A stretch of 62,543 nucleotides of DNA, the filler included, from Hausera hauseri (taxonomy: Eukaryota), in the NCBI GenBank assembly GCA_046269625.1. It is 10 parts of 10 records of this genome, joined end to end, with 100 filler letters (N's around TTAATTAATTAA, not from the genome) between each part and the next. Parts side by side here need not be neighbours in the genome. Positions count along the whole stretch, not along the records: positions 10,048 to 14,466 come from JBJURY010591556.1; 9 more parts are not named here. One strand, given 5' to 3'. The position numbers were made by a program, and so were the translations under genes. Positions within the stretch are counted from its first letter, which is position 1; every line of letters starts with the position of its first letter. Below, piece after piece: positions 212 to 33,000 of this stretch. The notes below the pieces were generated by a model, which worked only from the letters and a program-made list of their open reading frames with translations, was not told the DNA's origin and ran no database searches.

Positions 212-3200
212 TCAATTATCAAATGGCAACTGATTTTTTATACTCTCTTCATACAACAATTCATTAACTGCATCCAACATTCGATAATTTCTATTCCCTC
301 GGTCTTTCGCACAACGGACTTTCGATTCAATCAATTCTTTGGTGTAAAAGGGTTTCAGTGGAACCGGTCTCCTTTGGCTTTCGGGCAATTGATCATTCCA
401 TTTGATCCACTTCGTTTTGCATGCCTTCTCATGTATGGGGAGCGAGTATTTCGTGAAATACCGACCACATAAATAACAAACCGTGCCCGGCATTGACGGA
501 ACGAGTTTTTGGTCCATCTTCCAACAAACTGTTTCTTTTTTCTGGAATGCTTCAAGAATTTGTTTTTTCTGGTTTTCCATACATCGTATGGTGTGGTCCT
601 CTTTGTTCTGTTTGGAAATCCAACACCGACAAATATTGCATGGAAAATTTGTGATGGATTTCGTTTGTGGTGAACTGAGTTGTTTTAAAATGTCGTGTAT
701 GGGAATACCTGGTTCGCAATGGGGATTCGTGAGGTATTTTGGCATGAATGGACGGTATTTGACGTGGTAGCAATCGAGAAGAATGTCAACAGTATGTACT
801 AAAATGAAATCTGCTATGGCATCGATTATATTGTACGACATATCGTAGCTAAAGGTATCCACATGATCATCATAATGAACATCAGGACTGTCCTCCATAA
901 ATAATGGATTTTGCCGTTGTGCTCTACCCGGTTTGTCTTTAGTAGTGCATTTTTCTTTACGAATATATTCACGATGGTCTTTGCTTCCGATACTTGCTCG
1001 TCTGCTGACTATATCATCTGTATCTTCTCTTCTAAAGTTTTGTCTGCTACTTTCATGACACATTGATGCTTCTTTTGGACATGGATGCTCTATACCTGGT
1101 GTATCATCCATCAATAATGGATTTTGATACTGTGATCTACTCGTATGGTCTTTTACATTGTTTTCTTTGCTACCCATACTTATTTTTCTACTGACTATAT
1201 CATCTATCTCTTCCTTTGTTAGGCTTTGTTTGCTATTTCCGAGACCATCAGATACTTCCTTATGACTGCAACTAATTTTGCTCGGATATTTTCCAGGTTC
1301 GCTTGGATCTTGTCTGCTCTTAGCGAGACCATAAGATACCTCCTTATGACTGATTCTAATTCTGCTTGGATATTTTACCAGATCTCTTGGATTTTGACTG
1401 CTATATCTAAGACCCTCAGATACTTCCTTATGAGTGATACTAATTTTGCTTGGATATTTTTCCGGTTCGGTAGGATTTATGACGTTAGCTACCTTTTCAG
1501 TACTACGGTTTGATGGCATCAAACTCCCTTGCCGATATTGCATTTTTATCCAACCTTTCGTCGTTTCTAAAGTTCCGTTTCCCAACACCGATGAATCGTA
1601 TGACGTACTTGGTTTCATGATTTTGTTTTCAGGGAGATTATTTGATTCAACTTTTGTTTCGACACTTTTCCGAAAACCTGCCAGTTGTTGTTCCGAATAT
1701 ATATCGTAATATTTCGCCGATTGAATGTCCGATTGTTGAAATAGACTATGTCCTTGATTTGTCTGAGTTACTTCGTTAAACATACCAAAACGTCTTCCAT
1801 CATTGCTGTTGAGAAAGACTTCTTTCATCGGTTTAAATGATAAAACGTCGTCAGTTGTTGGAAAGTCTTTATTTGAATGATAGACTTTGGGGCCGATGAC
1901 TAGTACATTTTCCTGTGGAATATTGCTGATATAATCATACGGAGATGGCTCTATTTGTCTGCTGGCTTCGTTTTCGTTTGGAGATTCTTTTTTGCGGGTT
2001 TTTGATTTTGTTGGTCTGAATTCCAATTCATATATTTGATCGGATGTATTACATCGCTGGTAACAACTGTTATCAGTATTGATCCCATCGTCTAAGCAAT
2101 TCCGTTTCACTGATGTTGGTTTGTTTGTCTGACCCAAACATGGTGATCTACTTCGTTGCTTGTTGTCGTCGTTCACATCGTCCCTACTGAAATCATTGAT
2201 CATCCGACGATTTACTTGAATTTGAACAATTCCACTTTTCGACGAACTTATTTTATTCACATTTCCACTGCTCTTTGATGTATGTTTGGAAAGTGGAGGA
2301 CGAGAATATTTGAACGTCTGTGTGGATGACTTTATCCTTTCTTGAACGAAATCCAAGCTCCTTGTTCGCTTGGTGAAGACTGTATTATTGTACTCCATTG
2401 TTACGACTGGGGTTTGTTTCACGGCCAAATCCAACCTATGGTTCAATTGCTCGTCCATTTCGTATTCGGTATCTTCAAAGTCGCTCGACGTGTGTAAAAA
2501 CTCATAGAACACTTTCTTCTCGCACTTTTCAAAGCAATTAAATTCCGAATCACTCACATAGCCTACGAGTTCGTATTGATTTTCGTTTTCCATCGAGATG
2601 AAATCCACTTTGTTCACGTCGATATTCGTCGTAAATATATTACTGTCGTACTTGTCGACTAAGTTCGCTTCATCTGAAAAGTACCAACACGATAAAACTG
2701 AGTCGAAATTATCCTCCTTTGATAACATTTTTGTATCTTTTTGAAAATAACGTACACCATTGTCATGTTCGGCAACTACTATATCGATTTCCGGCTTCTC
2801 GGAGAGATTCACGTAACCTTTGGACAATTTTGGATTATCCGGTAATTGGATGTCATCGGGGGGTTTAAATTTCTGAACGACTTCAGCGATGATACTCGTT
2901 AAACCATCTGTGAAATATCTGTTCTTTGCTTTGCCATCTTTGTTTAGGTCACTTTCAACATCGACACTTATGAACAAACTTTCATCAGATGAAATAGGAG
3001 CAGTATTATCGTCACTAAGTGCTACAGGTGACGGATTCATGATGTCTAGATCACTAAGTGATTTACTCCAACTATTATTCATTGCATACTCATTTCTCTT
3101 TACTATTCTGGGGCTCCCTTCACTGCATTTCATTTTCCCGGTGTACTTCACATATTCCGATACTTCAGCCATTTTCAATTCACTGACACTCACATCGTTT

Positions 3201-5122
3201 GACTTGAATGTGCGCCGTTTCTCTTCGTGCTTCAGTTCCATTTTGAAATGGATCTTTTCGTTGCTGTTGTTGATTTTCGTCGATTCTGTTTGTAAGCACA
3301 ATTCCAAGGATCGACGGCTTCCATAAATATTCAACGAGGAGTGACTAGGGCGCATGGCAACGAGTTCTCCACAATAAATTGTCGGGAGTCGTTTGCAATG
3401 TTTGGAAATGTTTGGAACAGATTCTTTTATCACTGGACGATGGAATTTAGCAATACGAGAGCTTTCCTTGAGAGATAATTGTGAACCCTTGTTTTTATTT
3501 CTATGAGACTTAATTAACTCGGCAGTGTACACCTTAGCGTTATTCACATCATTCATGGCCCTGTAGAAGATTTCACGTGGTGCTATTTTACAACCAATTC
3601 GTTCAACTCGACTAATGAAGTCAGTTTCGTCGTTTTCTATTACTCGAAAAAAGTTTCTCTCACGAACTTTTAATTCTTTTGTCTGGAACCGTTTATCAGT
3701 CATCTTTCTTTCGATATCCCCATCGCAGTATGTTTTGTCCTTTACGTGCAATGCCGCTCTATTGGAAAGTTTATATTCGGTGACAAACTGCTTCTCGGAT
3801 TTCGTATTGAAACTTTCATAAAATGATGACATCTTACTAATAGAAAATGGATCTAACGTATGAAATGCAGCAGCGCCTCTTTCAATACTTTCAACATTAC
3901 ACGAACTATGTAATACGTAATCTTTGTCACCATCCGATAATTTCGGGTAGTGTATTAAATTTCTTGACGGTACATCCTCTCCAGATTGAGGATTTTCTAC
4001 GTCAACAGAGATGATAGTACCAGTCATCTGTCTGCCATATCTAACGAAAGTCGGTACACTATCAATATCTTGACTCAACGAGAACTCCTTTGACCTCTGA
4101 AACTCACAAGACAATTTTGAATGAGATGCTGTAAGTTCCTGACTAGCAGAAAACTGGTTTTGTCGTGGAAAGAGATTATACTGTGACTCACGGCTTGCAG
4201 ACAGCTGATTTTGTGGTGGAGAAAGATGAAACGGTACCCCCTGACTTCCGGAAAGCTGGGTTTGTGGTGGAAGGAGATGATACTGTGACTCCTGACTTGA
4301 AGAAAGCTGTTTTTGTCGTGGAAAGAGACGAAACTCGTTTAGACTTGTTAAAGGAACATCTAGATTTGTGCACGATGTTCCTTTATCAAAATCATACACG
4401 TCGCTATCAGACAACACAGGCTTAACACGAAATTTCTGTACGAATTCCTCATACTTCTCCAAATCATTTGAAGTTTGATTTTTGTTTTTCCGCCTTAACG
4501 ACACAACTTCTTCGATCTTTTTTACCAGTCTCTTATAGACAGATTTAATATAATGCTTCTTGAAGTTCTTCCACTTTCCAATCTTTTGACTGACTTGTGT
4601 ATTTGATTCAGGAGATAAAATATCACTCGTTTTCTCGATACTCAGATGTTTAAAGCCTGAAGGTTTTCTCTGATATTTGTTCTTCAAAGGGCACGATGAA
4701 AATATTCGACAATAAGTTGTTTCGGACTTTATTTGTTTATTCGGATTTCCTGTGGCTTGTGAATCGAGTTCATCATAGAACACATCAAATTTGTTGGAAT
4801 TATCATAACATAATGGTTCAAATTGTATTTTGGAGACCTNNNNNNNNNNATAGTCATTATCAAAGCTCAATAGTATCGGGGATTTGGGGCCCAACTCATC
4901 GTTCGTGTTGAATGATTTCAGGTGGGAATATACTGTTTCAGTGTCATCAACTAAATAATTGTCTTCAAGGTTACCTTCGTTATCCTTCGAAGTTTCTTCA
5001 ATGGAAATTTCAACATCTATATAATCATTTTCAATATAATCAAAATATCCCAGAAGTTTATTATTCAGATCCGGCTCATGACCATGAAAATTAGTTTTAT
5101 TAGTTGGCGGTGATGACATCAT
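212..5122 (-). CDS. Large, mostly low-complexity protein (1636 aa) with C-terminal C2HC-type zinc fingers, ZNF474-like
   Basis: Uninterrupted ORF apart from a 10-N gap at 4840-4849. C-terminus has CNICRCWISKQNKEDHTIRC and TVCYLCGRYFTKYSLPIHEKACKTKW...NDQLPESQRRPVP, matching the zf-C2HC motif and flank of ZNF474-type proteins. The remainder is S/K/N/D-rich with internal repeats. Confidence 0.7.
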   Translation of the reverse strand: MMSSPPTNKTNFHGHEPDLNNKLLGYFDYIENDYIDVEISIEETSKDNEGNLEDNYLVDDTETVYSHLKSFNTNDELGPKSPILLSFDNDYXXXXVSKIQFEPLCYDNSNKFDVFYDELDSQATGNPNKQIKSETTYCRIFSSCPLKNKYQRKPSGFKHLSIEKTSDILSPESNTQVSQKIGKWKNFKKHYIKSVYKRLVKKIEEVVSLRRKNKNQTSNDLEKYEEFVQKFRVKPVLSDSDVYDFDKGTSCTNLDVPLTSLNEFRLFPRQKQLSSSQESQYHLLPPQTQLSGSQGVPFHLSPPQNQLSASRESQYNLFPRQNQFSASQELTASHSKLSCEFQRSKEFSLSQDIDSVPTFVRYGRQMTGTIISVDVENPQSGEDVPSRNLIHYPKLSDGDKDYVLHSSCNVESIERGAAAFHTLDPFSISKMSSFYESFNTKSEKQFVTEYKLSNRAALHVKDKTYCDGDIERKMTDKRFQTKELKVRERNFFRVIENDETDFISRVERIGCKIAPREIFYRAMNDVNNAKVYTAELIKSHRNKNKGSQLSLKESSRIAKFHRPVIKESVPNISKHCKRLPTIYCGELVAMRPSHSSLNIYGSRRSLELCLQTESTKINNSNEKIHFKMELKHEEKRRTFKSNDVSVSELKMAEVSEYVKYTGKMKCSEGSPRIVKRNEYAMNNSWSKSLSDLDIMNPSPVALSDDNTAPISSDESLFISVDVESDLNKDGKAKNRYFTDGLTSIIAEVVQKFKPPDDIQLPDNPKLSKGYVNLSEKPEIDIVVAEHDNGVRYFQKDTKMLSKEDNFDSVLSCWYFSDEANLVDKYDSNIFTTNIDVNKVDFISMENENQYELVGYVSDSEFNCFEKCEKKVFYEFLHTSSDFEDTEYEMDEQLNHRLDLAVKQTPVVTMEYNNTVFTKRTRSLDFVQERIKSSTQTFKYSRPPLSKHTSKSSGNVNKISSSKSGIVQIQVNRRMINDFSRDDVNDDNKQRSRSPCLGQTNKPTSVKRNCLDDGINTDNSCYQRCNTSDQIYELEFRPTKSKTRKKESPNENEASRQIEPSPYDYISNIPQENVLVIGPKVYHSNKDFPTTDDVLSFKPMKEVFLNSNDGRRFGMFNEVTQTNQGHSLFQQSDIQSAKYYDIYSEQQLAGFRKSVETKVESNNLPENKIMKPSTSYDSSVLGNGTLETTKGWIKMQYRQGSLMPSNRSTEKVANVINPTEPEKYPSKISITHKEVSEGLRYSSQNPRDLVKYPSRIRISHKEVSYGLAKSRQDPSEPGKYPSKISCSHKEVSDGLGNSKQSLTKEEIDDIVSRKISMGSKENNVKDHTSRSQYQNPLLMDDTPGIEHPCPKEASMCHESSRQNFRREDTDDIVSRRASIGSKDHREYIRKEKCTTKDKPGRAQRQNPLFMEDSPDVHYDDHVDTFSYDMSYNIIDAIADFILVHTVDILLDCYHVKYRPFMPKYLTNPHCEPGIPIHDILKQLSSPQTKSITNFPCNICRCWISKQNKEDHTIRCMENQKKQILEAFQKKETVCWKMDQKLVPSMPGTVCYLCGRYFTKYSLPIHEKACKTKWIKWNDQLPESQRRPVPLKPFYTKELIESKVRCAKDRGNRNYRMLDAVNELLYEESIKNQLPFDN
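1226..1470 (-). repeat. Coding tandem repeat, 3 x 84 bp (28 aa; KYPSKISxxHKEVSxGL)
   Basis: gatac(t/c)tccttatga recurs at 1251, 1335 and 1419 (period 84); the peptide repeat is visible in the translation. Confidence 0.9.
4137..4330 (-). repeat. Coding tandem repeat, about 4 x 51 bp (17 aa; FPRQxQLSxSQESQYxL)
   Basis: tttgt(c/g)gtgga recurs with period 51; peptide units FPRQKQLSSSQESQYHL / LPPQTQLSGSQGVPFHL / SPPQNQLSASRESQYNL / FPRQNQFSASQE. Confidence 0.9.
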
Positions 5123-5148
5123 CGAATGTCGATTCCTCGGAATATTGA

Positions 5149-5248
5149 NNNNNNNNNNNNNNNNNNNNNNNNNNNNNNNNNNNNNNNNNNNNTTAATTAA
5201 TTAANNNNNNNNNNNNNNNNNNNNNNNNNNNNNNNNNNNNNNNNNNNN
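5149..5248. other. Artificial contig-joining linker (six-frame stop)
   Basis: 44 N + TTAATTAATTAA + 44 N. The same linker occurs at 9948-10047, 14467-14566, 21432-21531, 29584-29683, 37649-37748, 44359-44458, 51465-51564 and 56674-56773. Confidence 0.99.
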
Positions 5249-10047: not shown

Positions 10048-11237
10048 GTCTTCGGTTTATCTTCCTTCACTTCTACTTGCCAGTAGCCTTTTTGTAAATC
10101 GATGGTCGTAAATATTGTCGATCCGTGTAATTTGTCTAATATTTCGTCAATTCTTGGTAACGGACATGTATCCGTTTCAGTTATTTCGTTCAATGCTCTG
10201 TAGTCTATGCAAAATCTCATCGTCCCATCTTTTTGACCATCACTACTGGAGCTGTCCATTGGGAACAACTTGGTTTCCCTCATTTCTTTTATTTTCTTTC
10301 GTGCTTCCTGCTTCTTGTCATATGCTAATCGATATGGCCTTTCTTTATTGGCTTATCCTGTCCTTCCTTTAACTTAATGGTATGGTGAATTATATTTGTT
10401 GTGCCCAAATCATAATCATTTTGTGCAAATCGACTGTTATTTTTCTCTAACAATTTGATTAGCATTTGTCTTTCTTCCTTAGTCAAAACCTCGCATTTTG
10501 GTAGCTTTTCATCCCAATTAATATTGGTAGTTTTGATTCCTCCTTTGTCTTTGTCTGTCTATTTAATTTTTTCTGTCATTATTTTTTCTATTTTGTCCAC
10601 ATCTGAAATTATCGAGTTAATTTTATTACTTCTTCAATAGTCGTTACTTTTCCTAATCTAGTGTCCTTTTGTAATCGTTTTTCTTTGCTTGCTGTATTAC
10701 AAATTCTTAGACGGATTTTTCCATCCCTTACTTTATCTACATGTGGAGCGACTAAGATTTCACATTTTTCTATAACTTCTGGATATGGTTCAAAGTGAAT
10801 AACCTTAGGTAATAATTTGCCTTCTATTTTTCCGGGCACCACTGTCTCAGAACGTGGGGGAATTACGATATCTTTGATTAATGAGACCGTTCCTTCATTT
10901 TGGTTCTCACCGAACCTCTTAAGTGGGCCTGTTCTTACATCTATGTAAGCGTTTTCCAATTGGTTTAGTATATCGCACCCGATTAAAATTTCATTAGTCA
11001 GGTTTTCTGCTATCCTTATGATGTTTTAAAATTTTCTTACCAATCTTAATCTCGGCATCCAGGACCATCTTGATTTCTTCTGTGCCGAATGCTCCTACGT
11101 TTATTAACGTGGTTGTTGGTTTCCTTAATTTTTTTTAATTCTTTCGGTAAATGGCTCTTTTCCATTTTTGTTGTCGTAGATCCTGTATCTAATAGAGCCG
11201 TCAACGGATATCCATTTACTTCTATTTCTATCTCAGG
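10048..11237 (-). pseudogene. pol: Gypsy pol 5' part: aspartic protease, beta-rich spacer, start of reverse transcriptase
   Basis: EIEVNGYPLTALLDTGSTTT (protease DTG near 11185); IVIPPRSETVV...IRLRICN spacer (10609-10959); RFCIDYRALNEIT..DTCPLPRIDEILDKLHGSTIFTTIDLQKGYWQV (RT). Confidence 0.92.
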
Positions 11238-11589
11238 TCATATGGGTGACTGCCGTTCGTTTGGGTCATGAATTTTGTGCGTATGTTTGTGTTTGTAAGG
11301 TGCCAGGTTTTCGTTGAAACTTTGTTTCATCTGTTGTACTTGATGTATAGGGTACAGTCCGGCATGCATTACATATTGCGCAGCTGATGGATTTATCAAA
11401 GGTTGCTCGTTATATAGCTGTCCGTGGTATTCATCTGCCGGATTTAGTTGAGGTAAGTCGGCTACCAACCTTTGTCTGTACTTCTGTTTCCGTGACTTCA
11501 GTGCTAGCTGTTTGATTCTAGTTATTCGATCACTCTTAGTGTTTATCGTATTTGATGTCAAGCGTACTATACGGAGAATCTCTTCCGTC

Positions 11590-13380
11590 TTTCTTTTGTA
11601 CTATCTTCTTTTTCCATTGGGCATCGTGATTTGCCAAAAAGCAACTTGCTACTGCAGGTATTACTGCTATCAGAATTTCCCATGAGCAGCCTACTGCTGC
11701 GTGTATTCCATATGCCTTACCAAGCGCATTAAATACTGTTCGTAAGGCGCTAATAATAAAATATATAGCTAGGAAACCAGAAGTTGCTTGACCAAAATAA
11801 AGAATTTTCTCCACATCTTCATAACCTTTCTTGTTACTTTCTTTAAATAATCCTTACCCATTAAATTTTCCCAATGTGGTGGTCCTTCATCATCTCACAT
11901 TACTCTCCTAGTTAGTTCTGTTAGGACTCTTTGTCTCTGTTGGAGAAACAACAACATTGGTCGATAATCTTCTAGATTTTGTGCGTGTAAATTCCTCCTT
12001 GCGATATTTTTGTTAACGGTTCGAATCTCTGATTCCTCTGTAAATTAATCAAGCTTAAAGTCTCTGGTTTAGATACCGGTTCTCTCTTTGGCCTTCTAAT
12101 CCACTTATCGTTATATGTTATAAACATTGGTGACATGTTGAAAGTAAAATTGTATAGTGGAGTGGGCTTGGTATTAACGCCTAACAGTTTTTTCGTTACC
12201 GGCATCACATACCTTGGTTCTGCGTAATAAACCACAGGCAATTCTGTTGTGCATTCGTCCATTGGCCTAGTTGATACTTCTACCTTTTTGCACTATGTGG
12301 TTATCAACACCTCGCTCATCACTCTTCCAATAATTCCACCGCTAAAAGGCATCACTGGCGCTACCATATCTGGATTGGTTATTACCAAGGCCATTTTATT
12401 TCGTATTATTTCATAGTTTAACTTACATTCATTCATTATTATTTCTCGGTATAAACCTCTAATCTCTTTCCTTACATAATTTATTAGGAAATCAAACTTA
12501 TTATCAAAATTTTGTGTTAGCTTTACATCTTTCTTATCTATTTTCGTCTTCGCTGCAGGTATTTCTTTTGATGATAAGAAAATACCCTTAGTTCTCGATA
12601 TTTCTTCACTACACGTATCTACTCCCCTAATCACTTTAAATCCCATCATTTCCTCTGGGTTTTCCGAATATACAATTGTAGCTACCTCCATCATCTTAAA
12701 TTCCTTTGTACCTTCTTTATATGTTGCTGTTTCCTTTTCAGCTGTTTTTCGCACTAACTTGTTAAATTTTCCTTCTTTCAGTAACGTCGGCTGGCACTTA
12801 CTGGCAGCTGTTTCCCATGTCATTTTAGACTCTCCAGTATCGCATTCGCCATTATCATATTTACACTCACTCATGGTTGTCAATAATTTTATCTCTGAGT
12901 CAAATAATCCTTCGTATTCCTTCAATTGGTTTGATAATCTTCTATATTTACTGTTCTAAGTGCAATGGTACTTCCAACGTCGTAATTCATTCCTTTGCAA
13001 ATGCCTTCCATTGTTTTATCTATCCTTCCTGCTCTAAAGATTCTGGTACACTTTATTCTATTTTGTACTGCCGGTATATGCGCATTTTGAATAGTTATTA
13101 TGCCAATCTTAAAAGCGTCCTGACATTCTGCTCGTGATATTATTATAGGTCCAAAAGTGTTGTGGGTTCAAATATGGCCGAATTTCCAGAATAATAAGCA
13201 CAATTAAAAAGGAAAAATGATTTCTTTACGTAACATTCTTCTGGATACTTCTCTAAAACGACCAGGGAATATTTCTGTCCTTCGCTAGGTTTTGAGCAAT
13301 CATAGGTCACTATGCCTGCGGCTTTTGGCATTAATAATGACGTTACCAAGAGAATCTAAAGGATCTCCATTATTGACATA
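11590..13380 (-). pseudogene. env: Chuvirus-like envelope glycoprotein (frameshifted)
   Basis: Signal peptide then IVTYDCSKPSEGQKYSL; ECKYDNGECDTGESKMTWE..CQ; LYREIIMNECKL..NPDMVAP; DECTTELPVVY..VMPVTKKLL; SQGGIYT; membrane region FGQATSGFLAIYFII..AYGIHAAVGCSWEILIAVI. This motif order is characteristic of Chuviridae G proteins. Confidence 0.8.
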
Positions 13381-13494
13381 CCGGTTATGTCTGGTCTAGA
13401 AGTGTTTGACTGAGTTAGAACCGGCGTAGGTATTAATCTTTTTCGTTCCGTTGGTTTTGTTATGTTGGTCATCAGACTAGTTAGCCATCCACCT

Positions 13495-14438
13495 CTACAT
13501 TGAACCCAATTTCCCAGCGTATCTTTCAAAATCTTTACGGATGTCTTTATATTTCGCTCGATTCCTTCCAGATTCTGAGTCTGATGATTGATTACTATTA
13601 TTTTGTATAAAAGGTAGGATATAGCCGTTTGTGCCTTCTCTCGTGTAATGCCTGTTGCGAACATTTTTTTCCAAAACATCTAATTCATGTAATTCATTTA
13701 CTCGTTCTTCATCGAAATTATCATAGAATTGCCTGCTTATTCGCAACATACTATTACGTAATGTTTGAAATAGCTCATCGGGGATTATTACTTTCATGTC
13801 AAAGGAGGCGAATGATGTATGCAGTTTAGCCAATAAAGTTCTTAATAAGGGATCTATATCTACGGATTCAGGTGTAACATTTGTTCCTGCTAATATCAGA
13901 CGTCTTACTATTTTTTCGTTTCTCTCTTTCCTGTTACGAATATCATTTATCTTGTTTCCTCTTGGTCTACCTCTTCTTTTAGCCTCTGTTTGAACCGTAA
14001 CATCTTGCGTGTCACCTACAGGAAGCCTTTCTGCTTCCTGTGGTTCCAATTCCCTTAAAATATTATCAATAGTTGCTTGAGCTCTCGCCTCTGGGTGTAT
14101 TTCGGTTATTACTATTGGATTATAGTTTTCACTTCTGCATCCAATTCTTAGTAGTTTATCATAACTATATAGAATTCTTCCGCAATAATTTAATCCATAA
14201 GAACTTCCTTGGTAGAACGGATCGAACTCTTCTATTTTTTCATGTGAGTTTGTAGGTCATCCATTTCATTAATTCGTACAACTGTCATATCTTGGTTTCC
14301 CTCTCTAACTGTTATCCTGCTAGTTTCGCTTCTTCCTCTTTCATCTTCAGCGGCTTTGGCTAATATTGTCCTGGTTACTTCTCTCACAAGATTGGTATCT
14401 TCAGCCATTAATACCACTTGAGGTAGGATTTCGTTCAT
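13495..14438 (-). pseudogene. Upstream retroelement ORF with ubiquitin-like domain, AT-hook-like motif (KRRGRPRG) and helical region
   Basis: One frameshift in the A-run near 14235 joins RITVREGNQDMTVVRINEMDDLQTHMKK to IEEFDPFYQGSSYGLNYCGRILYSYDKLLRIGCRSENYNPIVIT, which continues in frame into ORF 13495-14049. Confidence 0.6.
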
Positions 14439-14819
14439 TCTTTCTCCTGTTATTTTATTGCTAATTNNNNNNNNNNNNNNNNNNNNNNNNNNNNNNNNNN
14501 NNNNNNNNNNTTAATTAATTAANNNNNNNNNNNNNNNNNNNNNNNNNNNNNNNNNNNNNNNNNNNNGATGTTCATTTAACATGTTCTGTACAATTCAAAA
14601 CAAGCAAACCTCAATAATACGTCATCTCGGTGACCCGACACTTTTCTAAATATACATAATGAATTTCTATATAAATAACCTTTTTTAATCCGTCAGGCAC
14701 TAAGCAAATTCTTTTATTCTGTATTTAATATTGAAAGATTTATTAAGCATCAGACGGAAAGTATTCACAAAAGTAACAAATCAATAAATCAATCTCTTAA
14801 AATTATTATTGTTTAATAA

Positions 14820-15491: not shown

Positions 15492-18400
15492 TTATACCAA
15501 AAGCCAATGTCCGTACGCCCGACTCTTATTCCGCCCCACCCACTTACGCTTATCATCATTGCATGATAAAGCGACTTTTGTATTGGTCACGGTATATATC
15601 TCGTGCTTAATGGATCGGATGATCGTTTGAGACACTACAGCCTTTGATTGTCCTTCCGCTCTACCGTCTTTTTCTCCTCCTTCATAAATACGGCGATAAT
15701 CACCGTGGTTTATTTCCGTCTGGGCCAACTGAACTCTTTTTGCTCGCATTTTCGGTCCACAGTCAGTTAAAAGGCTGTAACATTTTGGCCGTAGAAATAC
15801 CCATTCTCGATACTGAACCCGACCTTTACTTTCATCTTATAAGCCACCAATTTTGTTTGTGATAGCGTTGCTGTACAATGGATGATTGTGTGGGTAATTG
15901 GACGCGTTCAGTAATGCGTCTGCCATCATTTGCCGCAGTAGTTGTTCGCGATTGACGTTTTCCATTTCCAAGAAAAAACGGTGGCACTGGCTATTATATT
16001 GATTCTGCATCCGCTGCCGAACATTTGCCGGTATCGTACCAGCTCATACATCTGCAACTTGCTCAGATCCAATACCACGTGTCCTATATAACTAGGCCGG
16101 TGCAGTACGACTTCTTCCCTGTTTAAAAGCACGGCAAGCAATCCATGGGCAATATGCATTGATCGTCTGAACTGCGCCTTTTTCGTGTACGTTACTAACC
16201 GCCTTTTGCTATTGCATAGGCGTACATTTAGTCGCTTTTTCAGATTCTCTACTGTTTTACCGTATAGTTAATCGTTTTCAGTTTGTAATAGCCTTTTTCA
16301 AACTTCATACAAGCTGCGGTTCGTTTTTCCGAATTCCAACTGATATACGGCTTGAATATCGGAGCCTGTGCGAATCGGATTGCGCGATGCAGTTGTGACG
16401 CTTACACAAATCTGCATGTAAAATTGCAATAGCCGCCAATAAACTATGTAATTTGGCTTAGATTTATGCGTCATAAGCAGCTTCTTCACATTCGAACCCG
16501 GTGGACATTGACTGATTAGTGCGACCGACAGTTCATCCAGAAAGGCATGCAGCTCATCTGGTACCACGAGATCGACTTCCATCAGATATCCGATTTAGCC
16601 GTTTTCTGTTTTGTCGGCTCTCGGCAGATTTCCCAGTATTGCGTCCAGGTCCTGTTTGTCGATTATCCAATCGAATGAACCGTACGGCAAGGGTTGTGAA
16701 AGCGCCCGGTCGTATAGATTGTTAATGTCGATATTCAACAATGATGTAGTATCATCACTGGCTACGTGATGCTTGTTGACAAATGTCAAGCTGTCACGAA
16801 TGCCAAAATCAAATATTCGGTACATTTCCGAGTCTTGCAATAGCTCGATATCCCGATCTAGTGACATCAGAGCTGATGCCCAATTCATTCCGGATATTGA
16901 GTAAAAGTTGAGTGACTCCAGTCTATTTTCTGCCAACGCTTTAGCTTGAAATGTCTGAAACATCGCTTAACAGGTACACATCCAATTTCAGATAGTGAAG
17001 CATGTACTCCAACAGGTTTCTGCAGCCGAGCTCTGTCCAAAACGACTGTGCTCTGTGATATTCTTCTTCTGTGATACCGGGCCATTGCGGTGGTAATTCG
17101 TCCGTCGTCTGGAGCCGCTCGTACGATATCGCAAAGTCATACGGGAATATGCCTTTGCTACCCGAAATATGTACAGGGAACTGTGCCATTGTTAGCGTCA
17201 CATCTGGTAAGGCGTTTACCAGCTTTGCCAGAGATTCATTGAGAAATTGAAATGAATCGAGGAAGCGTACCTGGAACCAGTTTATACGAGCAGACAGTGA
17301 CAGGTATTTCTCCATCGTAGTCGGAATTACGAATAGTTATCAGTGCGGAAATCCGTTTATTGCTCATTTTAAAATATGGTGACAATCATAATCCCTGAAG
17401 TTATGAAATACCACCAGTAGGCATGGCCGGACACGCCTTGCCAAATTGCATGAATTACATGTGGCTCCGAGATATCGACCGGTAAAATGATCGTGATCCG
17501 GTACGAGTCGTTCCTCTGCATCGAACGATAATATTTTGTGGAACAGGTAATATTCATCGGTGGCTGCAAAGATCAACGGTTCATATTTGTCAGTCCACAT
17601 CAAGGGTTTATTACTATTTCTATTGTATCAGGGTACGATTTCCGTTTCTACTATTGTTTTTAACTGATGCAGGAAATCACGGATACAGTTCCAACCGTGG
17701 AAAGCGTAATACTGCGGTTGACCAGTGGCTTTTATTGGGGTCCTCGAACATACCGACAGACACTGGAACGTGCCGGACTGTCGAATTTTGACCAGTCACT
17801 GATTCTCAGTTACTTTTCGATTGACATGACGTACATTGTGGTTCCCGAGGAATTTCGTTTGCATAGGGTCACGTGTTTCTCCCATATTGTTTCTGATCTG
17901 AATCCGTGCAGACATACGGGACACCATTTACATTGTACACGATTTTTTATGAACTCGTCATGTTGCATGTTCAACAGTCTATCCAAATTTGTCACGGCCG
18001 CGTAATGGAATTTTTCCTTTTGCTCCATTAACAAGAAATTTACTGAACGGCCATTTGGATCCCGACTGTTATAAATTATATCCACATGAGGATTTTTGTA
18101 AATTTCATCCTCCGGTATTTCTATTATTGTGTTGTACCGGAAAACGTTGATTGCCAGTGTCGGATTATTCCATTCAAATGTCGAAATGGATTTCAGTTTC
18201 ATCGGCATCGAGCATCCATCGTAATTTAATTCGGAAAAATAATTCTGATACTGTTTTGGACTATATGTACTATGTCTGTCCACTTGGTCATGATTCAATA
18301 GATGCAGAATACTGTAAAGAAAACAGTATTCATCGTTAGTATTTTTTACATTCACTACCACCAAAGACTGCTTCAGAGCTGCAGGTGTCGGTATGAATGA

Positions 18401-18650
18401 TCGTCCAGACAAATATATTATGTCACTCGACTTTGTTATGATAAAGCCCATGGTGACAATTCGGATAATTCGTCATCCACTACTCTTTTCCGTGTAGTTG
18501 GCGATTTTCTCGAGCTTTTCGCTTACATCGGCATTAAAATCTTCGGCGTATGGTACAGCTCGATGTGACAGATACCATTGTTTCCTGTCACCTTCCAAAT
18601 TTTAGAATTCTTCAAGTACATAATATTGCACTATGAAGTGATGTTAGAAT
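15492..18650 (-). pseudogene. polB: Protein-primed family B DNA polymerase (Polinton/Maverick/adintovirus type) with endonuclease VII-like domain, copy 1, decayed
   Basis: NVKNTNDEYCFLYSIL; CPVCLHGF..WEKHVTLC; DHDHFTGRYLGATCNSCNL (Endo VII HNH); FHNFRDYDCH (ExoII); RFLDSFQFLNESLAKLV; KGIFPYD; YLKLDVYLLSD (ExoIII); IDINNLY (motif A); RAKRV..ALSCNDDKR..SRAYGHW C-terminus. Many frameshifts. Confidence 0.92.
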
Positions 18651-18889
18651 TTTTCGAATTCTGATTCCTACCGGTTGCAGACATTTTGCGCAACATGTCT
18701 CAATTGCATTGCTGTTTTCGCCGAAATTCACTTTTATGTCCACGTACGATCTGTTCATATCGTACTTGCCTGTAATATTGGGAATATTGGTTTCCTGTTG
18801 CTCCTGTTCTTGTTGTTGTTGATGATGCTGTTCCTTCTGCTCCTATTTTTGCTTCTGATATTGCTGCTCGGTACTGTTTCTGATTAAGT

Positions 18890-19368
18890 CGTCAAGACTT
18901 GTTGACGCCTGACGTTTCCTACTGGTTGTTCAGGGATGCTGATTTTAGTTGAATTTTTAATTAGTTGTTTTTTCGACTGCTTAGACTGGTTTAAGTGGTC
19001 CTTGTACAGATTATAAAATTGTTCATAGTTGTTTTCAGCAACTATTGAACAACCGGGGCAAACCTAGACCCGTTTACTGTGCACGTTGTGGTGTCATAGT
19101 ACTGCTCCATTGTACTGTGACAACCACTAACGTTGTGCACTTTATTATTGCAGTAGTGTGTGTATGTGGGAAAATGCTCAATCATCATCTTAGTCCGAGC
19201 AAACGGTCCGAAATAATGCTTGTGTACATCACAAAAGTCGGCGTACGGGCCTTGAGAAGAAACATCACACGTTGGACACACATACGCGTCCTTTTCTCCT
19301 GCGTTGTAATATTTCTCCATCTGTTGATAGCACTGATCCTCCACATGTATGCGAGAGACGCAGTACAT
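18890..19368 (-). pseudogene. Cys/His-rich ORF upstream of PolB (possibly the N-terminus of the PolB polyprotein), copy 1
   Basis: MYCVSRIHVEDQCYQQMEKYY..CPTC..HKHYFGPFARTKMM; near-identical start in the homolog at 28245-28766. Confidence 0.55.
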
Positions 19369-19492
19369 GGGATAAATGGAAATAAATTAAATAACATTGA
19401 AATGGATTAAAATGATAAATAAACTATGTGATAATTTTCCTTATTGGGTTCTAATCATTTATTCCACATACTAGTACTACTACTACAGATCA

Positions 19493-19747
19493 AATGGAAC
19501 AGTACATTGAAAGTGAGATTCAGAAATTGACCGCTGACATAATATCTGGGCATGTGTTTGATGTAGTTTTTATGCGAACTGATATAAACAAGAATAATGA
19601 GCAGGCGAGAATATATTGAATTGAAAGTCAGATCTCTTCGTGGATCAAGTGAGGCGAAAAGGACAACGACGTATTAATTTCCTCATTGGACTTGTATATA
19701 CTGTTTCGCTTTGTATTGTAATGAAAAAGTTGATTGGCCGTATTTAA
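19493..19747 (+). pseudogene. Small ORF with C-terminal hydrophobic segment (Polinton-like locus), copy 1
   Basis: MEQYIESEIQKLT...RRINFLIGLVYTVSLCIVMKKLIGRI*, with frameshifts; homolog at 28949-29218. Confidence 0.5.
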
Positions 19748-19827
19748 TCACACATTTGTACATATTATGTTTCGTTTGTTTTCGTGAATCAATGTAATTT
19801 ATTTCGCGTGTCTTTGTTGTTACATTT

Positions 19828-23915: not shown

Positions 23916-24857
23916 CTTGAATAACGGAATGAAACAGTATTATGGGCTTCAATTACGTGGAGATAATTTGTATCATTGTGATATGAGACAATACTCACAA
24001 AATAAATATCTATTGTTTACAATAAAAACGAACCTTTGATATAAATATGGATGCAATTTCATTTCACGTTTGTCTTATTTTAAAAATGTTTTTGGAAAAC
24101 AATTCAGCAGGTGACAGTTCTGTGAGTCTCTCAAAAAAGCCAAGGTACAGCGAATATTCGCTCAGAAATTCCCGGTTGTATAATTGATAAAACTTACATT
24201 ATCTGCGCAACGCTACTCAGTTGCCATTGACGCAAACGGTCAAAACCAAACCGATAAAATATGGTCTATTGCTGAACAAGATCAGTGACGATGATTTGGA
24301 TACAATGGGAGACAAAATTAAAAAAGTTGACAGTGATTTGGTGTTGAGTAACGATATCAGAGATACATCGTCGACTTTTCTCAAGAGAAATATGGCGAAA
24401 ATTGTCAGTTCACATGGTGGAGAAACAGCAGCAGCAACAAAAGCAGTTTAGCTACCAGAAGGAACTAAAAACTACCTGACACTGAAGCTCAAATGATTCA
24501 ATGAAAGGAGCAACGTCAAATCCCCAGTATGGAAAATGGGGAAGTTTACTATGATTTAACTGACTTACTTTGTATGTTTTTGTGATTTTAGTCTTTCTCT
24601 GATAAACAAATAAATGTATTCGTATTACATATTTTGTTTTCTCGTACAAAGTTATTGTTTTACTTTTACTTCTATCTTACTTAACAATAATAGTTCAAGT
24701 AAGGAACCAAAAACAAAGTACAAGATACACTGAGCAAAGAACATTATTAACATTGAAATAAAACGATATACAAAGGAGAATTGTCAATAATTGTCACAAT
24801 ATCCAGATCAAATTGAATTGCCTGTATCTGATCTGATCTAACACCACGGAACGTGTT

Positions 24858-27800
24858 TTATTTCAACATCCAATGTCCATAAACCCAACTCTTATTTTGC
24901 CCCACCCACTTTCACTAATCATCGGTAAATGACAAAGCGATTTTCGCACTGGTTATTGTATACAGCTGGTGCTCAATTAATCGGATGATCGTTTGAGACA
25001 CAACAGCCACTGATTGTCTTTTTTCTGATGCCGCTGCTGCTCCTACTGTTTCATATATACGGCGATAATCACCGTCTGTTTCAGTTGGACTCCTTTTGCC
25101 CGCACTTTCGGTCTACAATCCGTCAGAAGACTGTAGCACTTTTGGAGTAGGAATATCCATTCCCGATACCGGACACAACCTTCACTTTCACCTTTGAAAC
25201 AGCCGATTTTATTGGTGATTGCGCTGCTGTACAATGGATGATCCGGTAGGTAGTTGAACGTGTCCAGTAATCCATCTGACTGCATTTGCTGCAGTAGCTG
25301 TTCGCAATTGACGTTTTTCAGTCGCACCAAAGAAGTATCTGTCAACGGCAATTATGTCAATATTGCAGCCGTCAAGCATTTGCCAGTAACGCATGAAGTC
25401 GCGATACTGCAGCTCATACATCCGCAACTTTTTCAGGTCTAATATCACTTGTCCGATGTAACTTAGCCGGTCCCGAATGACTTCTTCTCTGTTTAACATC
25501 AGGGAAACCAATCCATCGTCAATGTTTATTGACCGTCGAAACTGTGCCTTGCTGGTATATGTAATCAGCAGCTTTTTCGAGTTAAATAGGCGCATATTGC
25601 GCCGCTTTTTCAGATTTTCCACTGTTTTTCTGTATAGGGAATTGTTTTCCAGCTTGTAGTAGTCTTTTTCGAACTTTGTACAAGATGCGGCTCGTTTCTC
25701 CGAATTTTCATCTATGTACGCCTTGAATACGGAAGCCTGAGCAAATCAAATTGCACGATGCAGATGTGCGACCCGTACACCGAACTGCATGTAAAACTGT
25801 AGCAGACACCAATGGACCACGTAATTCAACTTTGGTTCATGCGTCATGAGCAGTTTCTTCACTTTTGAGCCTGGCGGACATTGATTAAGTGGTGCGACCG
25901 GTAAATCGTCCAAAACGTCATGCAGCTCACCTGGTATCTCGAGACCGACCTCCATCAGGTATCCGACTGAGCCTGCTATGTTCGCTCGTGGTAACTTTAG
26001 CATTATGTCATCCAGATCTTGTCTGTCGACTACATATTCAAATGAACCGTACCGCAAGGGTTTTGAAAGCGCCCAGCCGTACAGGTTATTAATATCAATA
26101 TACAGCAGTGATGTGGTATCGGCGGTAGCACTGATTTGATGCTTGTTGACAAATGTAACGCCGCCTCGAATACCAACATCAAACATCCGGTACATTTCTG
26201 GGTCTTGCAGCAGCTCAATGTCTCGATTCAGTGACATTAGAGCTGATTCCCAACTCATTCCCGGTATAAAATAAAAGTTGAATGGCTTCAACTTATCTTC
26301 CGCCAGCGCTTTGGTCCGAAATGCTTGGAACACGTCGGCTAATAAGTACACATCCAGTTTAAGATACTGGAGCATGTAATCCAACATGTTTCTACAGCCC
26401 AGTTGTGTCCAAGATTCTTGGGCTTTCTGATGTTGATCTTCTGCGATACCTGTCCATGGCGGCGGTAATCTTCTGCTGTCCGGAGTCGCTCATACGATGT
26501 TGCAAAGTCATATGGAAATATGCCTTTGCTGCATGCAATATATGCAGAGAACTGCGTCAGTGCGATCGGCACATCTGGCAAGGCATTTACCAGCTTTGCC
26601 AATGATTCATTGAGAAATTGCAATGAATCAAGTAAGCGTACCTGGAATTGGTTTGCTCGTGTCGACAGCGATAGGTATTTCTCTATTGTCGTTGGGATTA
26701 TGGACAGTTCCTAGTGCGGTAACCCATTAATGGCCCTTTTGAGAATATAATGACAGTCATAACCTCGGAAATTATGAAAGATCAATGGCAGGAATGGTCT
26801 CACTCGCCTTGCTAAATTGCATGAATTGCAAGCTGCTCCCAAGTGTCGACCGAAGAAATGGTCATGATCCAGTACGAACCATCCCGGTACATCAAATTGT
26901 ATTATTTTGTGGCACAGATAGCATTCATCGGTGATAGCGAAAAACAACGGTTGATATTCGTCTGCCCAAATCAATGGCTTATTGCAATTGTTGCGATACC
27001 ACGGCGCGATTTCCGTTTCCACTATGATTTCCAACTTCTGCAGGAAATCACGTACATAGTTCCAACCATGGAAAACGTAATTTTACGGTTATTGGTACTA
27101 GCAACATACCGACGGCAATTGAAACGTGCTTTTGATTATATACATTGTGTCGTGGTAGAATTGCTTCGATATTGGCATACACCATATATGCCAGACTGTC
27201 CGTTTTAGACCAGTCACTGAATCTGAGCTTCTTTTTGACAAGCATGACATACATTGTTGTCCCTGATGCGTTTTGCCTGCATAGCGTAACATGTTTCTCC
27301 CACGTTGTTTTCCATTTCAATCCATGCAGGCATACAGGACACTATTTGTATCGTATTCGCTTTTTGATGAAGTGGTCATGCTGCATGTTCAACAGCCTAT
27401 CCAGATTTATCACTGCCACGTAATGAAAATTTTCGGCCTGCTCCAACAGTAACAAATTTACCGAGCGTCAATTTGGGTTCTGACTACGATAAATTATGTC
27501 CACATGGTGGTTCTTATAAATTTCTTTGTCTTCGGGTATTTCAACTATTGTGTTGTACCGGTAAACGTTGATTGAGAGGGCCAGATTACGCCGTTCAAAA
27601 GCCTGAATGGTTTCCAGTTTCATCGGAATCCAGCATTCACCAAATTGCAATTCGAAAAAATACTGCCGATACTGATTTGGACAATTTGCATGATATCTGT
27701 TCACTTCTCTGTACTTCAATACAGCCAGAATACTGTAGAGAAACAGTATTCGTCGTCGTCATCAGTATTTTGTACATTCACTATCGCCAGAGACTGCTTT

Positions 27801-28100
27801 AGAGGTGCAGGTGCAGGTATGAATGACCGGCTCCTGCAAATATGCCACGTCACTCGACTTTGTTATGATAAAGCGGAGTGTGACAGTTCGTATACTTCAC
27901 CATCCGCTATCCTTTTCGGTATAGTTGGCGATTTTTTCATCCAACTTTTCGCTTACATCGGTAATAAAATCTTCCTAATACTGTACGGCTCAATGTGACA
28001 GGTACCATTGTTTACTGTAACTTTCAACGTTTTCAAATTCTGCAAGTGCATAATATTGCACTTTGCAGTTGTTTAGTTTGAATTTCTCCACCTATAATTC
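24858..28100 (-). pseudogene. polB: Protein-primed family B DNA polymerase with endonuclease VII-like domain, copy 2, decayed
   Basis: YANIEAIL (ExoI), DHDHFFGRHLGAACNSCNL, FHNFRGYDCH, YLKLDVYLLADVF, IRGGVTFV, YIDINNLYGWALS, YYKLENNSLYRKT (motif B), KIGCFKGE, KVRAKGV, VYGHWMLK*. Confidence 0.92.
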
Positions 28101-28244
28101 CAACCGGCTGCGCACACTGGATGGAACATGCCTCAGCTCTAGTGTTGTTGTCCCCGACATGTTTACATTCACATCCACATACGATTTGTTTAGATCGTAC
28201 TTGACAGTAATGGAAGGTTTCTGCTGTTGCATTTGTTCCTGATG

Positions 28245-28766
28245 CTACTGCTGTTCGGTACTGTTTTGGATTAAGTCGTCAAGACTTATTGATGTATGAC
28301 GTTTTCTACTTGTTGAGGAGATACTGGTTTTTCTTGTCGCCACTAATATTTCCTTTTTGGACCTCCAAAACTGGTTTAACTGGTCCTTGTACAGGTTGTA
28401 AAATTGTTCATAGTTGATTTCATCAACTACAGAACAACCATGACAAACGTAGGCCAATTTACCATGCACCGCTGTGGCGTCATAGTACTGCTCTATTACA
28501 CAATGGCAACCATCAACGTCATGCACTCTACTACTACTACTGCTACAGTATGGCGGCTATTTGGGGCAATGCACAACCATCATCTTCTTTGCACGCGTAA
28601 ACGGGCCAAGATGATGCTTGTGCATCGCATGAAAGTCGGGGTATGGACAAGGGGCCAAAATACTACCGCATGTTGAGCGAAAATATAAGTCCGTGCCAAC
28701 GGAGTAATATTTAGCCATCTGCTGATGGCACTGCTGCTCCACATGTACGCGCGATACGCAATACAT
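28245..28766 (-). pseudogene. Cys/His-rich ORF upstream of PolB, copy 2
   Basis: MYCVSRVHVEQQCHQQMAKYY..HKHHLGPFTRAKKMM / HDVDGCHCVIEQYYDAT; homolog of 18890-19368. Confidence 0.55.
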
Positions 28767-28948
28767 GGGATATTGCTTACATTTCTAAATTTAAACAAAT
28801 TAACATTTAAAATAGATTAAAATTATAAATAAAATAAATTAAAATACATAAACTCGTAAAATTAAACATTAAGCATAATCCCAATTGCCTTACTCTGTTA
28901 AAAATGTTTGTTCCCCATGCTTCTACTATTATTACTACTACCAATCAA

Positions 28949-29218
28949 ATGGAACAGTACATTGAAAGTGAGAATCATAAACTGACCGATAATATTTTGA
29001 CCCGGCATGTGTTTGATGTTCAGTATTTATATGAACTCACAAAAACGAGAGTAATGATCAGGCGAAAATATATTGAATTAATAGTCAGATCTCTCTTCGT
29101 AAAACGTATCGAGGATGGAATGAGACGAAAAATACAATGACGTATTAATTTCCTCATTGGACTTGTATTTACTGCTTAGATTCGTATTGTAATGAAAAAG
29201 TTAATTGACCGTATTTAA
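28949..29218 (+). pseudogene. Small ORF with C-terminal hydrophobic segment, copy 2
   Basis: MEQYIESENHKLT...KIQ*RINFLIGLVFTA; the stop corresponds to CGA in copy 1. Confidence 0.5.
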
Positions 29219-29342
29219 CCACATTTGCATTATATTTATATAATTTTTCTACGTGTTTGTTTTTATGTATTAATGCAATTTATTTTGCATTCAAGCTACA
29301 TTGCAGTATAAATATTTGTGCTGTTTCCTATAAGATTATACA

Positions 29343-30089: not shown

Positions 30090-33000
30090 TTGAATTTGAT
30101 ATTAATGATGTTTGATGAAGATTTAGTTGAGAGTAGAACTGCTAACAAGCAGAACTTTATAGATAGAGATGAAATTGTGTTTAAGATGCAACACCTTTTT
30201 GAATTATTAAAAGTTCCCAGGAAGGTTTCCTATATAAAGGAAAAGGTGATTGAATTAAAAAACTTGTTAAAGAGTCTTGATAAGGTAGATAAGGCCATTC
30301 TTAACAATATTTCCAAATTTGAGTCCTTAAATGGTCACCATGCAGAAGAATTTAAGAGATTGTATAAACAGAGATGTGAACTAGACATAGGGATTCATGA
30401 AATACCTGATAGGCCAGTAGAAGCCCCTGAGAATGACAGTATTTCTGTGTCAGAGGAGTCTGTAGTTGGCTGTCCTAATTCTAGTGTGACTAAGGCAGAC
30501 TCTAGTAGTGCCCATAGTGTTAGGATTGATAGTAGTGTTGCACCAGGTAGAAACATAGAGCCATTAGATATTGGCAAATTCTATGGAGGTGGCAATGATG
30601 AGTTGGCTTTCTCAAGGTTTTTCCATAAATTTTTAGCAGTAATTGGAAATAACTCTGAATATAGCGATGAAAGAAAATTTCTTTATTTAGAGTCACATCT
30701 GGGAGGAGAGGCTCTTCGGTTAATAAGACATTTGAGCTTAAAAGACAAAAATTATGAATCTGCGGTGAAACTTCTTAAAGCTGAATACATGAATGAAGAG
30801 GTGGTAATTGACAAAATATTGAGTAGAATTGTGATGTCTACTCCTCCTCCTGATAATGATCTTGCCAAATTGAAAGGGTTTGTAAATGAAATACAAGCAT
30901 TGGTATATGATCTGATGAGTTACAATTTAAATTTCTTGGAGCCTAAAACCCCTGGGTTCTATTTGCTTAGTTCCATTGTAAGGAAGAAACTTCCATCCAA
31001 ATTTCGTACTGCATTAATTGATAAATCTTCATCTAATTTCCCAAATATTGTACACTTGTTTGAGCATTCTAGTAGTTTGTTGCGAAGGTTAAAAGAGAGT
31101 ACTGATATTCCGCTCAATCTTGAAAACACTACTGCAATTTCTGGTAAAAAAAATGGTAGGCATAAGTTCAGTAATTTGCATAATAAAGGTCCCTTAAGCA
31201 GAGAGAATAGTCAGGAAAAGTATGTCAAGAATTCACAAAAAAGCATGAGTACTTTAGAAAACTTTAAAATTATTGCAAACTCTTCTGAACAAAATGTTCA
31301 GAGTGGTAGACAAGGCAACCAGTATCCAAAGCCTTGCAAATTCTGTGGTATAGGCAATCACTCGATGAATAAATGTGATCAATATGTTGATATTACAGCT
31401 AGGTTAGCTCGCTGTGAGGAGTTGAATATATGCCAACTCTGTTCGAGTTCTAGGCATTTAGCAGAGAGTTGTCCTGGGAGAGAGGGCAAGTTAGATTTTA
31501 AATGTAACCGCTGTGGTCTTTTTAATCATATCACAGCACTATGTAATAAACCTAAAAATGGAAATAATAATCAAACTTTTTCTAATCTTTGCATAAATTT
31601 TAGTAAAGCTAATGGTAGGTCTTATTTACTCCCTGTAATGACATTGACTTTGATGAGAGGAGGAAAAAGGTTCAATTGTAGGGCATTAATTGATACTGGG
31701 TCACAGCGCTCATATATTAGTAGTAATGTTGCTATGAAATTTTTAAATTTAGATGCACTGAAAGAGGAAACTTATAAAATCAATAGTTTTATAGCTGCTC
31801 AGGAAAAGAAATTTAAATTAGCTTCCTTTGATATGGTTCTTTTCAACAAATGCATACAAAGTCCTTTGTTAATTGATGAAACCTTTAAAATAAACTTTAA
31901 TATTGAGGGTATGAATTTTGCTTTAAAAAATTTACTAGAATTAGGATATACATTGGCAGATGTTGATTTTAATATTAATAGGGATAATTCTTCCTTTGAA
32001 TTAGATGCATTAATAGGTGTTGACCTCATTCAGTTTCTCCCTTCCTTTGTATTAGAGAGGTGTATGAATGGATTTTGCTTCCGAATTGAGAATGCTATTA
32101 TACCTTTTGGTTGCATTGAACACTTTATAAATAAAAGTCAAAGGGATTTGCTCAAATCTCATAGCTGTATTGAATCTAGTGTTCCCCTTGACAATAATAT
32201 GCACACTGTATTAGTTAATAATATACTTGAACCAGTAAAGTCTTATTTTAATCCTTTGCATAGTATTCTTGAAGATAGCGCAGTTGAACAAGGATTAGAT
32301 AACCTTTTTACTTTAGAGAGTTTAGGTATTAAAAATAATGATGAGGAACTTTGTAAATCTGATTTTCTTCAAGTTAACAAATTTAATGCTGGTATTGTGT
32401 TTAAAGATAATCAATATTTTGTAAAACTACCATGGAATGACAAAGTGGAAATGGTTCCGTCCAATCATGTGGTAGCACTTAAAGCCCTTGATAGGGTAAT
32501 CAATAATTTAAACAATAAAAATTTATTGGCTGAGTATGGTAAAGTGTTTGAACAACAGTTGGAAGATGGTATCATTGAAAAGGTTGAAATAAATCCTAAA
32601 GATTATCATAAAATGGTATTTATACCTCACAGGCCTGTCATAAAAATTGATGCCCAAACTACTACAAAGATTAGACCTGTTTTTAACTGTTCTCTTAAAA
32701 CCAGAAAGCATTTGCCCTCCTTAAACGAGGCAGCATATCCTGGTGTTGATTTGATGACTTCATTGTTGAAATTAATTTTGAACTTTAGATGTAACGATTA
32801 CATTATACTTGCAGATGTAAAACAGGCTTTTCTTGCTATTAAATTATTATCTGATGAAGACAAAAATAAATTTTGCTTCTTCTGGAAACAAAATGGGAAA
32901 TTAATTACTTATAGGTACTCTTCTCTTGTTTTTGGGTTTGTGAGTTCTCCTTTTATATTGAATTATGTGATGAAACACCATGCTTCAAAATATCCCAATG

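Follow-up and report, generated by a model that had tools for sequence, protein, structure and literature searches.

Remnants of a ubiquitin-like domain in decayed, Burro-like Gag-Env-Pol gypsy elements of Hausera hauseri

Introduction

Does a gypsy-type retrotransposon carry a genuine ubiquitin-like (UBL) domain ahead of its envelope-type glycoprotein, and, if so, what would it use such a domain for? The question was raised by two short, broken translations in a window of 62,543 nucleotides from the Hausera hauseri assembly GCA_046269625.1, which is the whole stretch of DNA analysed here. The window is made up of 10 contigs joined via N-spacers, i.e. it represents more than one locus. The putative domain lies on two of these contigs: contig 10048-14466 carries copy A (minus strand) and contig 44459-51464 carries copy H (plus strand). 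Both copies are decayed Ty3/gypsy elements, each with many stops and frame breaks, and both contigs end less than 150 bases from the putative domain, with the upstream side missing.

The copy A stretch was found in one sequencing run, where 11,197 contigs align to it, 9,726 of them less than 95% alike, indicating that the element family is multi-copy and diverged there. Among the runs listed, none was of RNA, and no related loci appeared among the viral or metagenome contigs searched. As dead fragments, the two window copies contribute no more than two further diverged members to the family.

Layout of the two elements

The features recognized in copy A, in its reading direction, are the following.

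14320-14462, minus strand: helical module preceding the UBL, truncated by the contig end; top window match of a four-protein profile (E=0.13)
14235-14318, minus strand: N-terminal half of the UBL (strands 1-2 and helix start, by homology), aligning to residues 462-487 of the database protein P0004; 3 of 2000 shuffles as good
14104-14235, minus strand: C-terminal half of the UBL in a different frame (tblastn, P0004 504-688, 35%); 0 of 2000 shuffles as good
13957-13980, minus strand: basic GRP motif in the linker after the UBL, seen in the translation
13485-13791, minus strand: Bcl-2-like domain (BH1-BH2 region) with a break at ~13666; Pfam Bcl-2 E=0.0082, below cutoff
11554-13421, minus strand: class III fusion glycoprotein that includes a signal segment and is interrupted by several stops and frame breaks (PF24664, E=3.8e-10; tblastn)
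10048-11237, minus strand: protease remnant, conserved spacer and start of the reverse transcriptase (RT), where the contig ends (tblastn with P0003 and P0057)

Copy H contains the following.

44501-44599, plus strand: C-terminal half only of the UBL; best relative P0001 (276-299); 0 of 2000 shuffles as good
44783-45229, plus strand: helical region that may be a diverged Bcl-2-like domain (relatives' profile E=2.1; no Pfam Bcl-2 match)
45297-47174, plus strand: class III fusion glycoprotein, broken (PF24664, E=1.4e-10 and 1.6e-17), with 7 stops along the best template
47802-50672, plus strand: protease, RT, RNase H and integrase, broken (RVP, RVT_1, RT_RNaseH_2, Integrase_H2C2 and rve)

In both copies the PF24664 glycoprotein is of the Monjiviricetes type and precedes the protease, which in copy H shares an open frame with the glycoprotein C-terminus. 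The Pol order of copy H (protease, RT, RNase H, integrase) is that of Ty3/gypsy elements (Metaviridae). The GRP motif of copy A, which we take to be AT-hook-like, has counterparts upstream of the glycoprotein in 5 of 17 relatives.

Unbroken relatives were collected with an HMMER search using the copy H glycoprotein, which returned 52 proteins, and with cluster look-ups, which added six (58 in total). Word-based homologue searches returned nothing for the copy A ORF or the glycoprotein alignment (both among longer proteins), or for P0004 residues 400-760 (among shorter ones); these are weak negatives. The nearest relative of copy A is P0004 (tblastn 35-42%), and in a glycoprotein tree of 19 rows, none of which was dropped, the two are sisters (100/99), with 10 of the 16 inner branches left open. 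P0004 carries in a single frame Gag, a zinc knuckle, the helical module, the UBL, the Bcl-2-like domain, a hydrophobic segment and the class III glycoprotein; its capsid is Arc-like (E=0.007) and zf-CCHC was also found. In other relatives the frame continues through protease, RT and integrase. Gag was seen only in relatives (P0004, P0006, P0015 and P0021), because both window contigs end at the UBL. The original prediction, which had placed the UBL upstream of the glycoprotein, was right as to order; the two are not directly adjacent, since about 250 codons, including the Bcl-2-like domain, lie between them. Both that domain and the Gag-first, single-polyprotein layout had been missed.

One record among these relatives deserves a remark of its own: P0001, a retroelement polyprotein, was deposited as a hypothetical protein of a Flavobacteriaceae MAG and is likely animal DNA in a bacterial bin.

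Identity of the ubiquitin-like domain

The original prediction held that copy A contains a UBL interrupted by one frameshift, that copy H carries a diverged counterpart, and that the fold is the beta-grasp of ubiquitin. The two peptides are indeed homologous to each other (blastp E=3e-4, 33% over 43 amino acids), with an alignment score matched by 0 of 2000 shuffles, and to P0004. The frame break of copy A falls between the two halves of the domain, at ~14235-14245. When compared with the whole 1130-residue P0004, the upstream piece falls exactly on the N-terminal half of its UBL, with 5 of 2000 shuffles as good, while in the other two frames at the same place 651 and 1143 of 2000 shuffles do as well. 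The downstream piece matches the C-terminal half, with a score that 0 of 2000 shuffles reached (tblastn 35% over 190 amino acids). Both pieces map in order onto the two halves of the P0004 UBL and therefore belong to one domain, as the single-frameshift repair had supposed. Copy H retains only the C-terminal half because its contig starts (44459) just 42 bases before the piece.

Profiles support the same relationship. When a profile was built from five database proteins only, the two window pieces took the top two places among 1880 six-frame segments (E=0.005 and 0.087), and with a changed profile set the two pieces were found at E=0.0009 and 0.51. A family alignment (A3) was assembled from five relatives and three window pieces, 4 of the 8 rows having been picked by eye for ubiquitin likeness. 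Against PDB its best matches are ubiquilin UBLs (ubiquilin-2, E=1.8e-4), with ubiquitin also present, and 57 of the 60 matches listed are ubiquitin-like. Because four rows had been chosen by eye, the search was rerun with the window pieces and P0004 only; all six PDB matches were then ubiquitin-like, the best at E=0.11. The UBL of P0057, which was outside the profile, was recovered at E=1.7e-7 among the 58 proteins. Leave-one-out recovery was strong for two of five (P0006 and P0057) and weak for three (E=0.02, 0.16 and 0.45), and it failed for P0023. Pfam finds ubiquitin in P0004 below the curated cutoff (E=0.031 for the whole protein, E=0.004 for the UBL stretch alone), and no Pfam match to the domain rises above that cutoff. 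Taken singly, the window pieces matched nothing significantly among PDB sequences, the best ubiquitin-like protein being at E=0.72, and in the ESM Atlas they reached ubiquitin clusters at 0.79-0.86, below 0.9, which are leads only.

The fold was predicted on P0004, to which the window copies are connected via homology. An AlphaFold check had been suggested for the repaired peptides; for the broken copy A piece the model was discarded (pLDDT 35), and it was the P0004 relative that folded as ubiquitin, with pLDDT 90.3 and pTM 0.79 (five models, 73-90) and a secondary structure that includes E4-11, E14-22 and H27-38. Foldseek superposes this model on ubiquitin with TM 0.84 and rmsd 1.9 (6nyo_E), among 257 PDB matches at E<=0.001, and VIA-align gives Z 12.6 and rmsd 1.7 over 76 aligned residues; OASL, ubiquitin, ISG15 and SUMO score equally well there. 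That the likeness arose by chance from joining two frames is hardly credible: none of the three window pieces has a Pfam ubiquitin match and the broken piece does not fold, but both pieces map onto an unbroken natural domain that folds as ubiquitin, and the existence of P0004 refutes this reading. The window sequences are thus almost certainly decayed remnants of a ubiquitin-like domain.

The domain is of the integral kind, as had been predicted for both elements. A C-terminal Gly-Gly, the feature of type I modifiers, is absent from the translations of copies A and H and from the UBL end in 4 of 5 relatives; the exception is P0019, where Gly-Gly occurs shortly after the domain. The fold pattern is kept at 11-28% identity among the alignment rows, which fits long selection, and a family-specific Gly-Cys/Asn pattern is visible in the alignments. 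As to conservation across further copies, the domain is present in five of the nine relatives whose glycoprotein is preceded by 350 residues or more and gives no profile match in the other four; it is thus not essential to the family.

A possible second, degenerate UBL lies upstream of the first in P0057, at about residues 60-130 (E=0.8). A link to the UBL of Ddi1 was considered and set aside: the whole-protein profile A6 matched only Pol and Ddi1-type proteases, and the likeness is confined to the protease region.

Neighbouring domains

A helical module of about 70 residues stands directly before the UBL in P0004 (395-462), P0057 (232-299), P0019 (955-1028) and P0006 (417-470), and a profile built from four other relatives recovers P0006 at E=2e-6. 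The module is kept together with the UBL across deeply diverged glycoprotein lineages. A HEAT-like identity was rejected, the match reaching E=0.07 only.

Between the UBL and the glycoprotein lies the Bcl-2-like domain, which is found in the same place in P0002, P0004, P0005 and P0019. A profile of the family matches Bcl-xL at E=0.0016, and a profile made from relatives only finds the copy A domain at E=7e-14. In P0019 and P0004 a signal segment follows 23-38 residues behind a BH2-like GGW motif; more generally, of 7 relatives tested, 5 have a hydrophobic segment immediately ahead of the glycoprotein and 6 have another behind it, P0004 ending sooner.

Comparison with known systems

A UBL in a gypsy element had been regarded as unusual, and this turns out not to be novel. 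In the available text of Arkhipova and Yushenova (2019; PMC6431247), the planarian element Burro has a Ubi2/SUMO-like motif between MATH and BCL-2, and an in-frame, mononegavirus-like Env that comes after BCL2 and ahead of the protease; decayed Burro fragments with stops and frameshifts are also described there, and meddling with apoptosis and ubiquitination is already suggested. BURRO1 transcripts on PIWI knockdown are described in the accessible part of another study (PMC8532177). Copy A and P0004 share with Burro / GYPSM1 the Ubi/SUMO-like domain, the BCL-2-like domain, the in-frame Env and the order relative to the protease. The window elements thus very probably have a Burro-like layout and, as far as domain order indicates, appear to work like Burro.

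Burro has MATH, BIR, ankyrin, AIR1 and Smc in an ORF of ~4,900 amino acids, whereas none of these has a Pfam match in P0004; the roughly 250 residues between its zinc knuckle and UBL are free of MATH, BIR and ankyrin matches. Burro also has a dUTPase-like domain between protease and RT, where copy A has a spacer (10612-11025), conserved by tblastn, with no Pfam or PDB match. Burro exceeds 30 kb and has long LTRs; the window elements are known from 4-7 kb contigs and are likened to it by described domain order.

A relative of 4844 amino acids, P0054, has ankyrin repeats and no UBL match. The same protein carries seven tandem aspartic protease stretches, a C2H2 finger and the ankyrin repeats between glycoprotein and RT.

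The elements also resemble the GAG-ENV-POL errantiviruses with HSV/gB-type glycoproteins, recorded from flatworms, bryozoans and nematodes in the portion available of Chary and Hayashi (2026; PMC13524379), in that a class III fusion glycoprotein lies between Gag (seen in the relatives) and Pol. ENV rows in the accessible part of that paper, whose elements include Smed_errantivirus_1/2, resemble, by eye and not by computation, the glycoproteins of P0054 and P0057. Ubiquitin is unmentioned in its main text and seven supplementary files, and BCL is unmentioned in its main text. Troyka (CG...CG termini, 3-bp TSD, no envelope described) was dropped as a comparison, its paper mentioning neither ubiquitin nor a glycoprotein of its own. 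The window contigs stop short of the element termini.

Among cellular proteins, the type II (integral) UBLs of ubiquilin, RAD23, OASL and parkin share the beta-grasp fold, the absence of a C-terminal Gly-Gly and the embedding in a larger protein. The element domain differs from them in its low identity (14-20%) and in its Ile44-equivalent, which is not conserved here, and no single cellular family stands out (Z within 1). The ubiquitin inserts of pestiviruses and the baculovirus v-ubi are likewise cases of a ubiquitin fold carried by a virus, in its polyprotein or its genome. Those inserts and v-ubi are near-identical to host ubiquitin and have a cleavable Gly-Gly end, whereas the element UBL is highly diverged and lacks such an end.

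The UBL domain is real and its layout is already in print for Burro (PMC6431247). In the literature searched for a structural or functional study of the UBL, that paper alone names it; Grohme 2018 and Jurka 2007 may annotate more fully. New here, and not found in that literature, are the fold-level support, the compact relatives that lack the remaining cargo domains of Burro, and the conserved helical module. The Ubi/SUMO-like motif of Burro, which in the text available rested on one HHpred annotation line (PMC6431247), is now backed at the fold level.

Possible functions

The column which we take, from ubiquitin numbering, to be the equivalent of Ile44 reads N, Y, H, D, T, W and I across the seven sequences compared, so that the conserved Ile44-centred hydrophobic patch expected of a proteasome shuttle is not present. 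With this position variable, a partner specific to the lineage is more likely than binding to the proteasome or ESCRT in the canonical way, which weakens the use of these host pathways proposed in the original prediction. The balance leans slightly towards a reading in which the integral UBL of these Burro-like Gag-Env-Pol gypsy elements bound proteins in the cytosol as part of a host-modulating cassette, and was not a conjugatable tag.

A mechanism can be outlined for such a module, judged as a whole plausible but somewhat short of probable. On hydropathy, the polyprotein would enter the ER at its internal signal segment, leaving Gag, UBL and Bcl-2-like domain in the cytosol, and cleavage by signal peptidase would then release the glycoprotein, the signal segment staying on behind the Bcl-2-like domain as its tail anchor. 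The protease of the element would release the helical-UBL unit from Gag by a putative cleavage, and this unit might bind a host proteostasis or cell-death protein using a part of its surface distinct from any conserved Ile44 patch. The cassette, should it indeed modulate apoptosis or proteostasis, would provide a tractable example of retrotransposon-encoded counter-defence proteins.

A more ambitious version of the same idea, which we regard as rather unlikely, is that of an ancient modular anti-host cassette, made up of the helical module, one or two diverged UBLs and a tail-anchored Bcl-2 homologue, that inhibits cell death or innate defence, the UBL acting as a decoy for a host ubiquitin reader. 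If true, this would amount to a countermeasure in the style of large DNA viruses within a retrotransposon, and would suggest that these animals possess a so far unrecognized pathway against retroelements.

Unlikely, too, is a role as a proteasome/p97 degron, in which the UBL would send the Gag-side product to turnover and so tune the ratios of parts made from an equimolar polyprotein. The relatives do have single-frame polyproteins, and the best profile matches are the UBLs of ubiquilin and RAD23, both of which are proteasome shuttles; yet identity to these is only 14-20%, SUMO, ISG15 and others tie with them, and the Ile44-equivalent varies in all seven sequences.

Less likely again is a mere passenger or folding spacer, i.e. 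a captured host domain retained only to fold and to keep the frame open. Such a domain could well be present in only some relatives (5 of 9), with very low identity and variable surface residues, as is seen here, but the retention of the same helical module alongside it across deeply diverged glycoprotein lineages and the family-specific Gly-Cys/Asn pattern argue for more than that.

Ubiquitin fusion to retroviral Gag can rescue budding, and ESCRT ubiquitin-binding domains read the Ile44 patch. A UBL in frame with Gag, predicted to face the cytosol and situated beside Env, might by analogy act as a late-domain substitute, a Gag-fused ubiquitin mimic that recruits ESCRT for the budding of enveloped particles. 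The variability of the Ile44 patch and the absence of the UBL from 4 of 9 Env-carrying relatives make this distinctly improbable.

Finally, the domain could mark a processing site for a ubiquitin or UBL protease of the host, in the manner of the pestivirus inserts; a viral fold search does return the ubiquitin inserts of BVDV polyproteins, among many ubiquitin-fold matches, and P0019 has Gly-Gly just after its domain. Neither window copy nor four of the five relatives has that dipeptide, however, and the element encodes its own protease, which leaves this reading highly improbable.

The RING-like ORF

A 3' RING had been invoked as a second sign that the element uses host ubiquitin pathways. 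The ORF in question is the following.

58115-58984, minus strand: 3' ORF with RING-like motif (zf-C3HC4, E=6e-5)

It lies on contig 56774-62543 and is physically unlinked to either UBL. That contig, to judge from 71% nucleotide identity with the copy H contig over 543 bases at the integrase end, appears to belong to the same element family as copy H. The RING-like motif lacks, by eye, its last Cys, and no RING was found in the two relatives that have the UBL and extend through integrase (P0001 and P0057), a survey that a separate downstream ORF would escape. The proposed RING link is accordingly weak.

Two parts of the window, 37749-41530 (plus strand) and 58115-62543 (minus strand), are 3' parts of the family, with long post-integrase frames that contain hydrophobic segments and a stretch which by eye looks exonuclease-like. 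The long frames have no Pfam match, and the RING-like motif occurs on the second contig only.

Other features of the window

Several sequences apart from the two elements were observed in the window. An unbroken BEL/Pao polyprotein of 1905 amino acids (Peptidase_A17, DUF1759 and DUF5641) occupies 30090-35807 on the plus strand. On the minus strand, two decayed copies, 75-86% identical, at ~15500-19750 and 24850-29220 contain remnants of a protein-primed DNA polymerase B and may be Maverick-like. A very long low-complexity frame at 212-5200 (minus strand) has internal repeats of 51 and 84 bases and a C-terminal C2HC finger (E=0.006), and an intronless cytochrome P450 frame of 411 amino acids (E=7e-80) lies at 55384-56616 on the minus strand.
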